From positions 1-39,370 of IMG/VR virus record IMGVR_UViG_3300027994_000011: 39,370 bases of DNA. One strand, written 5' to 3'. Shown here piece after piece: positions 254-14,891 of this stretch. The position numbers were made by a program, and so were the translations under genes. The DNA comes from a virus (Duplodnaviria; Caudoviricetes). The notes beneath the pieces are model-generated. The model worked only from the letters and a program-made list of their open reading frames with translations, was not told the DNA's origin and made no database searches. Every line of letters starts with the position of its first letter. Position 1 is the stretch's first letter.

Positions 254-275
254 AGGGCTTCTCCTGTTGGGATGA

Positions 276-303
276 ATAATACATTAACTAATGGTTATTT
301 CAA
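276..303 (-). promoter_or_regulatory. Putative late-operon sigma70 promoter with overlapping CtrA-like box
   Basis: Minus strand TTGAAA-16nt-TATTAT; ATAA-CCATTAG-TTAA at 284-298 is 1 mismatch from TTAA-N7-TTAA. Confidence 0.55.
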
Positions 304-529
304 GCTTTTGTTACCAATGATTCTGTTACGCGGAAGTCTAAATGCTTTCCATAGTTTGGTTATGAAATCAATCAAAGCCATGGTCCTTTGCTCTCTCCTT
401 GTATTTCAAAGGATTTAATCATAAGCCAATTGTAAGGTGTGTAAAGCCAGTACATGCACTCAAATCGGCACATTGGGATAGAAATTATGTGTCCGGTCCA
501 GTATAGGATGTTAACGGCTATGAACTCAA

Positions 530-2913: not shown

Positions 2914-3094
2914 TCAACTCCAGTCTTTTTAATTTTGCTTTCTCGACAGGGGACTTTGGGTTCAAAATATCGGGATGGTGACCTATATAGAATGCCAAAC
3001 TCGCCATTTCAGACTTGGCGTCTATTGCATCAGAATTACAAACCAGAGAACATAGCCTTTTGATTTCTTCTAAAGTTTCTTTATCAATTGTCAT
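2894..3094 (-). CDS. hypothetical phage protein
   Basis: ATGA overlap with upstream gene. Confidence 0.6.
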   Translation of the reverse strand: MTIDKETLEEIKRLCSLVCNSDAIDAKSEMASLAFYIGHHPDILNPKSPVEKAKLKRLELNDGQRN

Positions 3095-3378
3095 TCGCCT
3101 TTGTCCTTTTCAATCGGGCGGGATGCGTATTCGGAACAAATCAGGTCGTATTCCTCCTCATCCTCAACGCTGCACCATTCATCGTCAACCGGGCATAGAT
3201 AATCAATTCCACTGGCATTGCAGTAATCCGGCTTAATATTGTTATCAAACTGGAAACAATCGTAGTCTGCCAGAATATCCACCAATCTTTGACCTTCTTT
3301 TAAATCAGCGACCGGAACTATAAACGGTTTTCCCGGCACTTGCGGAATATGCCAAACCCTTAATTCTAGTTTATTCAC
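3091..3378 (-). CDS. P22 gp17-like superinfection-exclusion-related protein
   Basis: LRVWHIPQVPGKPFIVPV...LADYDCFQFDNNIKPDYCNASG closely follows the P22 gp17 signature. Confidence 0.85.
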   Translation of the reverse strand: MNKLELRVWHIPQVPGKPFIVPVADLKEGQRLVDILADYDCFQFDNNIKPDYCNASGIDYLCPVDDEWCSVEDEEEYDLICSEYASRPIEKDKGE

Positions 3379-3536
3379 TTCCCACCCTCCCCCGGTTGTA
3401 ATTTACCCTCGGTCGATTGGATAAAATCTACAACGACCCAATAAAATCTAGTTTGCGGCAAAAACAGGATTAATAACGCAGCAATTAACCATAATGAAAT
3501 CTTTATTGAAAACTTACCATTTTGAAATTCAAACAT
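3375..3536 (-). CDS. small single-TM protein
   Basis: ISLWLIAALLILFLP hydrophobic segment; coupled to neighbours. Confidence 0.5.
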   Translation of the reverse strand: MFEFQNGKFSIKISLWLIAALLILFLPQTRFYWVVVDFIQSTEGKLQPGEGGK

Positions 3537-3897
3537 TTTGTTTATCCTTTGGTTGTAATTTACCATTATGCAACCTGTCCATGGCTTCTTCAAAGGCTTC
3601 ACGCAGTGGACACCCGCCATTATAGAACCTTAGGGCAATTTCTATGCTTCCATCAGAATTAAGACTTGCTTGTGTTAGATAACCGTCATCTTCAATGTCT
3701 TTTGTGCCTGAATAATCATAAAGCTCACCATTATACGACAAATAGGTTTTGTAATGCTTATCGGTTAATTTCTCTAAAAATGTATCGCCATAAGATTTCT
3801 CATCCCCAAGCATACGCTCACACATCTGCTCGACTGTTTCATTTTCTTTGGGTTGAACCTTGACTACCTTGCCGACCCAGAATTCCATTTCAGACAT
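3529..3897 (-). CDS. hypothetical acidic phage protein, first gene of operon
   Basis: 122-aa ORF with RBS GGAG upstream. Confidence 0.75.
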   Translation of the reverse strand: MSEMEFWVGKVVKVQPKENETVEQMCERMLGDEKSYGDTFLEKLTDKHYKTYLSYNGELYDYSGTKDIEDDGYLTQASLNSDGSIEIALRFYNGGCPLREAFEEAMDRLHNGKLQPKDKQNV

Positions 3898-3975
3898 AAA
3901 AAAACTCCATAAAAGTTAGCTCGCCTTCGGGGACAAACTAACGTCTATAGAGTTTCAACTGCCCGAACAGTCAAG
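3898..3975 (-). promoter_or_regulatory. Structured 5' leader: two hairpins with complementary loops, RBS sequestered
   Basis: Loops UUCGGG and CCCGAA; long stem AAACUCUAUA..GUUAGUUUGUC/GGCGAGCUAAC..UAUGGAGUUU with G-U pairs on minus strand. Confidence 0.7.
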
Positions 3976-3979
3976 AACT

Positions 3980-4007
3980 ACAATACACCATTCCCTCACC
4001 GGGTCAA
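3980..4007 (-). promoter_or_regulatory. Putative sigma70 promoter
   Basis: TTGACC-16nt-TATTGT directly upstream of the structured leader. Confidence 0.55.
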
Positions 4008-4019
4008 GCGGGAAATGAG

Positions 4020-4586
4020 AAAAAAGTTACAGGGTGAGGTGCGGCCTACTTTCGTAGCTGTTGCCCTTGAAGGTTTTTAAACCAAACCGCAGTTCTTTCG
4101 GCAACCCTGATAACTTCCTTGTGCCAGATGTTCACCCCGATCAGGTTTTCCGTACTGGCATTCCTATCCTGCCTTATTTGTTGGGGAGGTGTCAACTAGG
4201 CAATATTCCGCTTTCCGCAAGACCCGATATACTTGATATCAATGCGGTTCGGTCAGGTCGTATTACGTTAGTAAATCCTACAAGATGACATTTTATCGAG
4301 TGCCGCTCGCCGATACCCACTATACCAGCCATGGGGAGCAATTACATCGTACAGGTCTTGTATTCTGTTCTTCGGGCAAACCCTACCCTAGAACGCCCCG
4401 GAAATTCCCTTTCGGGATAAAGAAGGCTACCAACAACTAGATTTTTGGCTTTACACCATACGGAACCTAGAAAACGCTGAGAAGCTATCGGGGAAATTAG
4501 TTGACCTTATCGGTCGGATGCACTATATATAGTGTCAAGGTACTAAATTCATCCCTCGAAGAAAGCTTCCGGCGCTTCGGGGGATT
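4020..4586 (-). ncRNA. Putative ~560-nt structured non-coding RNA of unknown family
   Basis: No credible ORF in a gene-dense genome; nested helices with G-U polarity and GAAA tetraloops (UCCC-GAAA-GGGA, CUAC-GAAA-GUAG) on minus strand; ends in a closing stem plus U-run. Confidence 0.65.
4501..4529 (+). promoter_or_regulatory. Putative sigma70 promoter for antisense sRNA
   Basis: TTGACC-17nt-TATATA; -10 lies inside the perfect palindrome CACTATATATAGTG (4521-4534). Confidence 0.6.
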
Positions 4587-4592
4587 TCTTTA
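4536..4592 (+). ncRNA. Putative ~55-nt antisense sRNA ending in an intrinsic terminator
   Basis: 11-bp stem ATCCCTCGAAG/CTTCGGGGGAT (one G-U pair, valid only on plus strand) followed by TTCTTT; promoter immediately upstream. Confidence 0.55.
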
Positions 4593-4619
4593 TCTTAATG
4601 ATAAATTTGTTTTGGTCAA
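4592..4619 (-). promoter_or_regulatory. Putative sigma70 promoter of the large ncRNA
   Basis: TTGACC-16nt-TAAGAT on minus strand just after the 4626 stop codon. Confidence 0.55.
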
Positions 4620-4625
4620 GAAAAA

Positions 4626-5069
4626 TTACGGCATCTTCTGAAAGAAGTTTCCAGAGTTTGATTCTATCTCTTTAGATATATCTAATATAATTCGGTAAAC
4701 TTTTCGACCTTCCTCAACAGAAATGATATTTGCTGTATGGTAATCGTATTTTGAGCCAAGTCGCTCTTTTATAATATTGTACAGGAATGTCCTTTTACGC
4801 TTAGCGTTGTCCCTGTTCTTCCACATAGGGTCTAATAGAGCATGAATATGCTTACGTGCATTCTTTATGGCTGGCGTGGGTATGATACCTAACGGTCTAG
4901 TTCTGTCTTTTGTTTTCCAATGGCAACCAACAAAATTATCGCATCGGTCACATATCCAAAACGGAAGTTTATATAAATCTTCCCTATGCGGGTAAATTTC
5001 CTTACCATCCGTCAATCTGGCCTTGACCTTAAAACCACAATCGCAGCACCAAATTTCTCTTACTTGCAT
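4626..5069 (-). CDS. DUF3268-family zinc-finger protein
   Basis: CCDCG..ARLTDGKEIYPHREDL...FWICDRCDNFVGCH...PLG...RKHIHALLDPMW pattern; ATG 5069. Confidence 0.8.
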   Translation of the reverse strand: MQVREIWCCDCGFKVKARLTDGKEIYPHREDLYKLPFWICDRCDNFVGCHWKTKDRTRPLGIIPTPAIKNARKHIHALLDPMWKNRDNAKRKRTFLYNIIKERLGSKYDYHTANIISVEEGRKVYRIILDISKEIESNSGNFFQKMP

Positions 5070-5197
5070 TTTTGACAAGGCTCTATAACTATTTCATTAA
5101 CAGCCTTATCTACAGGCATAATAAGCTTACCTTTGAGTTCTGAGTTACACACAGAACACACGGCCCTCGCAGGGATAGAAATATTTATATGAGCCAT
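5060..5197 (-). CDS. 45-aa CxxC...CxxC zinc-ribbon miniprotein
   Basis: Manual translation MAHINISIPARAVCSVCNSELKGKLIMPVDKAVNEIVIEPCQKCK; TAATG coupling to upstream gene. Confidence 0.65.
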   Translation of the reverse strand: MAHINISIPARAVCSVCNSELKGKLIMPVDKAVNEIVIEPCQKCK

Positions 5198-5790
5198 TAT
5201 TTCATCCTCAATTCTAAATTTCCAAATATCTTGTTCAACTCAATTAAATAACGGTCTTTTACCCACTGGTAAGCTGATTTAGTAACCGTTAAATAGTTTT
5301 CATGCTGATATCCGTATTCAGGATCATATCTCGCATCCTTAAACCATGTATTAACAACCGCTACCCCGTAAACCTTTGCTATCTTATGTTTCCATTCAGG
5401 CCAGTCTTGTGTGTCAATCGGTAGAGCGGCAGTCTCTAATGCTGCCTGACCATCGTTCCATCTCTTTTGATTGAGCCAACTTGAGGCGTGGGCAAAGGCC
5501 GCAAACTCTTCTTTATTCAGGCAATAATACCGCAGACCCTTCATTATAGTTTCGTGGTCTGTTTCCTTTAGGGCTTTAATATAAGCACGTTCGGCGGGTT
5601 CTTTTGCCACCTTAAGCGGATAGGCTGTCCAGAACTCCAAGAAAGTTGTTGGTTTGATTCTCTTAGGCTTGGCGGTGGGATTGCGGACAATATGGAGCGC
5701 GTTCTCGTAATATAGCTTACGGTCTTCTGGCGAAGTTTCTTTATTCGCCATTAATACAACTAGGTCATATACGCGCTGTTGGTCGTTCAT
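5197..5790 (-). CDS. Replication initiator/replisome-organiser-like protein with C-terminal DnaA domain I-like segment
   Basis: FLEFWTAYPLKVAKEPAERAY...HASSWLNQKRWND initiator C-terminal motif; then W..KIAKVYGVAVVNTWF...YQWVKDRYLIEL resembling DnaA_N. Confidence 0.75.
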   Translation of the reverse strand: MNDQQRVYDLVVLMANKETSPEDRKLYYENALHIVRNPTAKPKRIKPTTFLEFWTAYPLKVAKEPAERAYIKALKETDHETIMKGLRYYCLNKEEFAAFAHASSWLNQKRWNDGQAALETAALPIDTQDWPEWKHKIAKVYGVAVVNTWFKDARYDPEYGYQHENYLTVTKSAYQWVKDRYLIELNKIFGNLELRMK

Positions 5791-14488: not shown

Positions 14489-14891
14489 TTTCTGTTCCCC
14501 CAGAAATCCCAGTCATTGAATCAACGGTTAGTGAGATTTCCGGGTAGTTTGGTGACTGGGAACCTTTCTTGCGATATTGTGTTGCTCGGCACAATATCGT
14601 TGGACAGGATAAAAAGCATTATTATAGTAATGCGGTTCGGGTTCGATTCCCGACTCGACGATTTATTCGGCTATAACCGGGTTAATCATAATTGAGATTT
14701 TAGGAAACCAAATCCTGTCCAACCTTTCTTTATGTAACCAGTTAGCATTCCCCTGCCAGGCTGGTTACTTATGGACAGGCAGACGGACAAGGCTTTGGCA
14801 TGTAAGCCGGTAGATTGTGAAAAATGAGAGGTACGCCTCTAAGCATTTGAAAGCGATAAATCGTGGGTAGCGAGTGGTCTAGCCCTGTCTA
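14489..14891 (+). ncRNA. Array of structured RNA modules including a T-arm-bearing tRNA-like element
   Basis: Back-to-back stems with plus-strand G-U polarity; T-arm TCGGG-TTCGATT-CCCGA (14637-14653); repeated TGGACAGG..CCTGTCYAAC and AACCTTTCTT. Confidence 0.7.

Follow-up and report, generated by a model that had tools for sequence, protein, structure and literature searches.

Between a promoter-like site and the first gene of a minus-strand operon, positions 3,898 to 4,007 of the DNA studied here encode a short leader RNA with two hairpins, and the question raised by this locus is whether the leader acts as a switch and which of its conformations would turn the operon on. The window, meaning the whole stretch of DNA that was analyzed (39,370 nucleotides), is a complete 39.4-kb virus record from a phage whose portal, terminase, and capsid are P22-like according to family matches. 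The host is probably alphaproteobacterial, as suggested by a GcrA-like gene in the window, which scores slightly below the Pfam cut-off, and by the nearest annotated capsids to the window capsid, which are those of Rhizobium and Paracoccus phages. The phage may be lytic; no integrase is evident among the listed window ORFs, part of which were covered by the family scan. The leader lies downstream of a replication module and ~600 nt of noncoding DNA, and small minus-strand genes run from position 3897 to the end of the record (Table 1). The P22 gp17-like gene is among them, and its PF17420 match bears out the initial annotation, which had placed the leader at the head of an operon that includes this gene.

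Table 1. Features of the leader and its neighborhood, in window positions.
Feature	Position	Strand	Remarks
Replication initiator	5197-5790		upstream replication module
DUF3268 gene	4626-5078		replication module; followed by ~600 nt of noncoding DNA
Upstream UGCCCGAA	4371..4378	-	present; judged outside the switch
Sigma70-type promoter-like site	3980..4007	-	-35 TTGACC (4007-4002), 16-bp spacer, -10 TATTGT (3985-3980)
Hairpin 1	3957..3972	-	5-6 bp, located at the inferred transcript start
Loop 1, UUCGGG	3962..3967	-	invariant in 3/3 leaders
Hairpin 2	3901-3956	-	24 bp: 13-bp lower stem, C·U mismatch, 11-bp upper stem
Lower stem, 5' strand with C mismatch	3943..3956	-	anti-SD arm in the predicted OFF fold
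Upper stem (11 bp) including loop 2	3915..3942	-	3 pairs change on both sides
Loop 2, CCCGAA	3926..3931	-	exact complement of loop 1; invariant in 3/3 leaders
Lower stem, 3' strand with SD GGAG (3908-3905)	3901..3913	-	base of the predicted intrinsic terminator
U7 tract	3898..3904	-	predicted termination site, immediately 5' of the AUG at 3897
Start context AUGUCUGA	3890..3897	-	in read-through RNA, second sequence predicted to pair with loop 1
First gene of the operon	3529..3897	-	122 aa, phrog_6035
P22 gp17-like gene	3091..3378	-	PF17420, E 1e-27; same operon as the first gene

Everything that had been stated about the sequence itself, namely the two hairpins, the 6-nt complementary loops, the lower stem that pairs with the ribosome-binding site, and the U-run, was verified. 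Transcription would start near position 3973, giving a leader of 76 nt that contains no AUG. Hairpin 1 adjoins hairpin 2 with zero linker, and both hairpins are unbranched. The promoter match alone is weak because a scan returned 10 such sites as compared with 6.9 ± 2.9 in shuffles. The segment from 3895 to 3975 folds into the two-hairpin structure at -33.0 kcal/mol (z -6.1), and none of 200 shuffles was as stable. In this predicted closed form, both loops are unpaired and the SD GGAG is paired with a predicted probability of 1.00, as it is in two homologous leaders. In the minimum-energy fold that includes the start codon, hairpin 1 is lost and loop 1 pairs with AUGUCUGA. An 8-nt palindrome is also observed within the invariant 5' arm of the lower stem (3951-3944, minus strand), and could bind a protein as DNA or mediate dimer contact when the RNA is open.

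The two homologs are contigs of P22-like podophages that carry the same leader before unrelated genes; all three phages are uncultured and distantly related. The leader of G001 (L003; L264:2637-2719) is 94% identical to that of the window over 89 nt, and elsewhere the two records have only gp17 and a lysozyme stretch in common at the DNA level. A model built from the window and G001 leaders gives the leader of G007 (L289; L333:5277-5195) a score of 97.5 bits. Both contigs are incomplete (59% and 70% complete). A TTGCAA box, followed after 16 nt by TATAAT or TATTAT, is found in both homologs at the same distance from the leader as the promoter-like site of the window, and only 11-19 of the 40 nt upstream are identical among the three. 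The first genes behind the three leaders encode unrelated phage proteins with no Pfam match, and protein atlas look-ups returned no function for two of them. The first gene of G007 (L333 4857-5201, minus strand) belongs to a large phage protein family with 1479 relatives, and its protein is also encoded on a contig of 39,556 nt. The start context AUGUCUGA begins all three of these unrelated genes, and of the 88 ORFs that have an SD-like site only these 3 carry it. In each phage, the leader heads a cluster of small accessory genes between the replication and terminase genes; in the window, the link to the terminase genes probably crosses the ends of the record. The gene for gp17 is present in two of the three phages and is not on the G007 contig.

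Comparison of the three leaders shows variation in 14 of 84 scored columns. Both sides change at 5 of 35 pairs with 99% of cells paired, which 4 of 500 shuffles reach, a figure that rests on three related sequences and is not a probability. A sixth double-sided change, from A-U to U-A at the stem base, is masked by an alignment gap. The stems are thus well supported. In the stem of hairpin 1, 6 of 10 columns vary and 2 pairs change on both sides. Variable columns number 6 of 22 in the upper stem, 2 of 28 in the lower stem (1 of 14 in its 5' strand with the mismatch), and 0 of 12 in the loops. Covariation of the loops had been proposed as a check on the kissing interaction, and it was not observed: the 12 loop bases are invariant in all three leaders, with no compensatory change. 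The kiss is therefore backed, at the level of sequence, by complementarity and loop invariance rather than by covariation, and at this divergence the invariance of 12 bases is weak evidence.

Within one genome, the 6-nt loop match alone would fall within chance. A scan of 1579 neighboring hairpin pairs elsewhere in the window, which did not detect the leader element itself, found 1 pair with 6 complementary loop bases and 8 with at least 5. It is through its conservation in two further phages that the match exceeds chance. Among 31 two-hairpin leaders that bury an SD, drawn from 24 phage stretches, at least 5 complementary loop bases were found in only 3, all of them members of this family. 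Two of the scans that found the homologs required the loop sequences, but both homologs, and no leader with different loops, were also recovered by a loop-blind scan (33 matches), which shows that the identity of the loops does not come from the search patterns alone. No RNA sequencing run was listed as containing the sequence, and two DNA runs, possibly its source, showed no variants. The leader is a real, portable, and uncatalogued phage leader RNA.

These comparisons also bear on whether the leader is simply a static lock, with a stabilizing 5' hairpin and a long stem that silence the first gene until a nuclease or protein opens the stem, the loop match being incidental. A lock opened by a nuclease has a model in the lambda N leader, which RNase III activates. 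The 24-bp stem with its fully paired SD fits this description, as does the nearly invariant lower stem, which would be equally expected from a static lock or a protein site, and one chance 6-nt loop match per genome is to be expected. However, the loops are invariant although the pairs closing both of them are among the five that change on both sides, at least 5 complementary loop bases occur in 0 of the 28 other SD-burying leaders, and the seven U residues are retained in all three leaders despite a one-base insertion. A static lock is unlikely.

The initial annotation envisaged a kissing structure that buries the ribosome-binding site. According to a simple A-form estimate rather than a 3D model, closure of the lower stem would place the end of loop 2 53-56 Å past loop 1, a gap that makes an intramolecular kiss implausible. 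When the lower stem is open, the strand at 3943..3956 becomes a 14-nt linker in the predicted kissing fold and would span 54-64 Å, or 3.6-4.3 Å per step, which is feasible by the same estimate. Kissing and burial of the ribosome-binding site are thus predicted on geometric grounds to be mutually exclusive, rather than parts of one structure, with the kiss belonging to the open state, and the kiss is therefore likely to be ON. Our preferred reading, to which we assign a probability of roughly 0.6, is that the leader would act as a kissing-loop attenuator in which the kiss is the antiterminator, or ON, state.

The closed lower stem, worth -14.6 to -15.6 kcal/mol, is favored at equilibrium over the isolated loop duplex (-7.8 kcal/mol), and an ON state would therefore have to rely entirely on the kinetics of folding. 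All three leaders are alike in what a kiss-ready fold costs: 1.1-1.4 kcal/mol with as many as 63 nt exposed, 2-3 kcal/mol at 65 nt, 5-6 kcal/mol at 67 nt, and ~16 kcal/mol at full length. In the guanidine-IV riboswitch, ~12 nt are hidden in the polymerase at the U pause (bioRxiv 10.1101/2020.10.21.349134). With ~64 nt exposed at the U-run pause and a cost of 1-3 kcal/mol, the kiss could form just before the terminator would, and could win when termination is decided.

In the attenuator, pairing between the two loops during RNA synthesis would keep the lower stem open, and the polymerase would read through the U-run with the ribosome site left free. If the kiss did not form, the 24-bp stem would close, transcription would end at about base 76, and the ribosome site would be buried. 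After read-through, the RNA would relax to the closed stem and loop 1 would re-pair with AUGUCUGA, locking translation off and making expression of the first gene brief. Pairing of loop 1 with the AUG region is predicted at probabilities of 0.91, 0.81, and 0.35 in the three leaders; the lowest, weak value is that of G007, and it drops to 0.12 when 30 nt of the gene are included. The ON share would be set as a kinetic throttle, with ON as the default and lowered by anything that captures loop 1, the simplest captor being the terminated RNA itself. This throttle is favored because a perfect 6-bp kiss should form without a ligand. Tug-of-war antitermination, in which a terminator is weakened by the structure immediately preceding it (bioRxiv 10.64898/2026.06.17.733018), could by analogy add to the role of hairpin 1.

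The closest known system, judged by analogy of design, is the guanidine-IV riboswitch (mepA or GGAM-1 motif). In guanidine-IV RNAs, the P1 loop pairs with the terminator loop and the riboswitch is ON when kissed; for steric reasons, a complete terminator and the kiss do not coexist, and the outcome is decided during transcription (PMC11611296, PMC7736828, bioRxiv 10.1101/2020.10.21.349134). Similar to guanidine-IV, the phage leader has a 5' hairpin loop that is complementary to the loop of a predicted intrinsic terminator, and a linker that is, by geometric estimate only, too short for a kiss with the full terminator. The main differences are that the phage leader is shorter (76 nt as compared with ~95-105 nt), that its closed form has no unpaired linker, that its 6-nt loops are fully paired with no bases left over, that its SD lies inside the terminator arm, which predicts two levels of control, and that it precedes phage accessory genes rather than sugE or mepA. 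No match to a guanidine-IV-class model was obtained at E ≤ 10, provided that Rfam 15 holds one. Although predicted to work in a like manner, the leader is not assigned to the class, because its genes are not guanidine-related and its loops leave no bases over.

The resemblance does raise the question of whether the leader is an orphan riboswitch or a protein-sensing switch, in which the kiss would form only when stabilized by a small molecule or by a phage or host protein. The architecture is that of guanidine-IV, whose discoverers expect further classes in terminator loops (bioRxiv 10.1101/2020.10.21.349134), and the linker bases and four G·U or U·G pairs are invariant. Yet Watson-Crick pairing takes up every one of the 12 loop bases, so that no conserved loop base is left over, and such kisses generally form unaided, the ligand dependence of the cobalamin system requiring a bulge (PMC10907184). 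Moreover, no theme unites the downstream genes, and a blastp comparison, which could miss diverged proteins and covered two contigs that are 59% and 70% complete, detected no protein shared by all three phages. A ligand- or protein-dependent kiss is decidedly unlikely. So far, the kiss-versus-terminator design has been characterized in a bacterial riboswitch gated by its ligand; the 76-nt phage leader, which would also hide the SD, is portable, and has no evident ligand, would present this design as a stand-alone timing or throttle device and could serve synthetic control as a compact part.

A sub-case of the kissing-loop attenuator is that the terminated 76-nt RNA would capture loop 1 of new transcripts in trans and shut off its own operon. 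In the first transcripts, the intramolecular kiss would win and the accessory operon would be expressed. In the terminated RNA, a self-kiss would be impossible, and loop 2 would be free to capture nascent loop 1; captured transcripts would be forced to terminate, yielding more 76-nt RNA in a positive feedback, and the operon would be shut as genome copies rise. The same operon of a co-infecting phage with this leader would also be silenced, which would explain the identical, noncovarying loops in distant phages. Such a self-counting switch would need neither a protein nor a separate antisense gene, and if the terminated RNA is the trigger, one RNA would act as sensor, switch, and signal. Self-silencing in trans is a tentative proposal that we consider somewhat unlikely.

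Elements of both the attenuator and this sub-case have precedents. As in ColIb-P9 repZ and IncL/M repBA, predicted pairing of a loop with a downstream complement would free the SD, and in those plasmids a competing RNA can capture the loop by kissing (PMC4705826). Unlike these systems, the phage leader has no leader peptide and no antisense promoter conserved in the three leaders, its genes are not rep genes, the partner is a hairpin loop, and a predicted terminator is built in. Matches to PK-repBA on the opposite strand of the two homologs were weak (16.9 and 14.5 bits, as compared with a cut-off of 45). Similar to IsrK of prophage Gifsy-1 and to P4 seqA/CI, one promoter would give a short terminated RNA and a read-through mRNA with a silent fold, and in those systems the long transcript is a trans target of its own short form (PMC4825925). 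IsrK activates by extended pairing, whereas the predicted trans effect of the phage leader is loop capture and repression, and no sequence or Rfam link connects them.

The terminated RNA might also be the product itself, which would assemble head to tail like phi29 pRNA or act in trans on other mRNAs as an sRNA. In the predicted closed form neither loop is paired, and terminase genes lie downstream of the unit in all three phages; pRNA likewise has two complementary loops, which pair between molecules and through which it multimerizes (PMC4201828). In contrast to pRNA, the leader has no three-way junction and has a conserved SD and AUG context, which points to control in cis. The packaging system is also different, with P22-like portals and a putative small terminase gene, assigned by position only, and a scan for trans partners in all three records found no outstanding target for either loop. 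This reading is very unlikely.

The initial annotation further suggested that the switch is coupled to a large RNA encoded upstream, whose UGCCCGAA would pair with loop 1 as C4 or CI RNA pairs with its leader target. The 8-mer is present, its chance of occurring within 600 nt on that strand is ~0.007, and 3 of 10 minus-strand CCCGAA sites fall in the upstream region. However, 5 of its 8 bases are in a local hairpin (unpaired probability ≤0.07), and it ranks only 38th among the partners of hairpin 1. In G007, an upstream RNA is missing: a terminator-like hairpin and ~60 nt are all that separates the HNH gene from the promoter. The noncoding stretch upstream of the G001 leader contains no CCCGAA and shows no blastn similarity. 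The proposed kinship with C4 and c4-a1b1 was not seen either: at E ≤ 10, positions 3800-4700 gave only chance-level Rfam matches (mir-186), none of them to C4 or c4-a1b1. Unlike those systems, the leader has no neighboring antisense RNA with exposed complementary loops, as far as the incomplete homolog contigs extend. Coupling to the upstream RNA is highly improbable. Of the earlier proposal, a conserved structured leader that is likely a conformational switch and attenuator is supported, and coupling to the upstream large RNA is not.

The upstream region (4020-4600, minus strand) comprises ~580 nt of noncoding DNA with a promoter-like site of its own (4619-4592), several GAAA-type hairpins, and a 3' domain that ends in a U-run at ~4021-4026; near 4095-4050, visual inspection alone points to a possible pseudoknot. 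Its overall fold is no better than that of shuffles (z -1.0), and no Rfam or phage blastn match was found for it. In G001, a 190-nt noncoding stretch (L264 2408-2600, plus strand; z -1.6), also with its own promoter-like site, lies just upstream of the leader promoter. The two stretches were seen manually to resemble each other, which was not confirmed by alignment.

It was also considered whether the leader is a put-like RNA that binds RNA polymerase and renders it resistant to termination. The put RNA of HK022 suppresses terminators at a distance and binds the zinc domain of beta-prime, and, as in putL, the leader has ~70 nt with two adjacent stem-loops just downstream of a promoter (PMC9378689). 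The phage leader, though, is predicted to form a terminator of its own with the SD inside it, no loop-loop pairing is described for put in the available text of that report (PMC9378689), and no Rfam family matched anywhere in the window at the gathering score. A put-like role is barely credible.

Searches for further members covered viral, metagenomic, and genomic sequences. Viral pattern scans returned 69, 1, 6, 15, 29, and 33 loci, which yielded the two homologs in total; the remaining loci were judged to be chance after folding, blastn, or CM scoring, with blastn covering all 69 loci of the first scan. Among 58 loci from a metagenome pattern scan, only the contigs of the window (L130) and of G001 (L128) carried the leader. 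A genome pattern scan gave 0 members among 33 loci with a pattern that would have missed a variant of the G007 type. CM searches found no further member in 79 loci neighboring gp17 and 5 whole phage records, in two annotated alphaproteobacterial phages, or, with model R2, in 88 sources. Neither 401 genomes searched by pattern nor 151 searched by CM, sampled from the class to which two alphaproteobacterial genomes belong, yielded the leader. Searches of the region or the leader by blastn against annotated phages and plasmids gave short chance matches only, and Rfam searches of the homologs at E ≤ 10 gave chance-level matches, PK-repBA on the opposite strand and others. No account of this phage leader was found in a search of the open-access literature. 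Five loci with other loops (L321, L325, L326, L331, and L302; 23-28 bits) were not counted as members. These come from an unrelated phage family, and have a 5' hairpin, a long stem that buries GGAGG, a U-run, and an AUG (L321 1507-1596, minus strand); their loops are not complementary, and the L321-type leader precedes a 168-aa ORF that is holin-like by appearance, which is a guess.

Elsewhere in the window, the DNA after the GcrA-like gene (14594-14722, plus strand) is noncoding and is closed by a long inverted repeat, with a hairpin resembling a tRNA T arm at 14640-14652. ARAGORN found no tRNA in this stretch, and Rfam gave only a subthreshold match to a tRNA-like sRNA (E 0.19).

The leader is probably not the sole governor of the late genes, because the window and G001 have separate promoter-like sites close to their terminase genes, and a similar intergenic stretch occurs in both the window and G007. 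This stretch of 56 nt (window 259-314 and L333 816-870, both on the minus strand) is 79% identical in the two phages and contains a promoter-like site and an SD before genes that lead to the terminase; it is likely a late promoter. Many of the best promoter-like sites (window 4007-3980, 4619-4592, and near 300, as well as those in L264 and L333) have a spacer of 16 rather than 17 bp.
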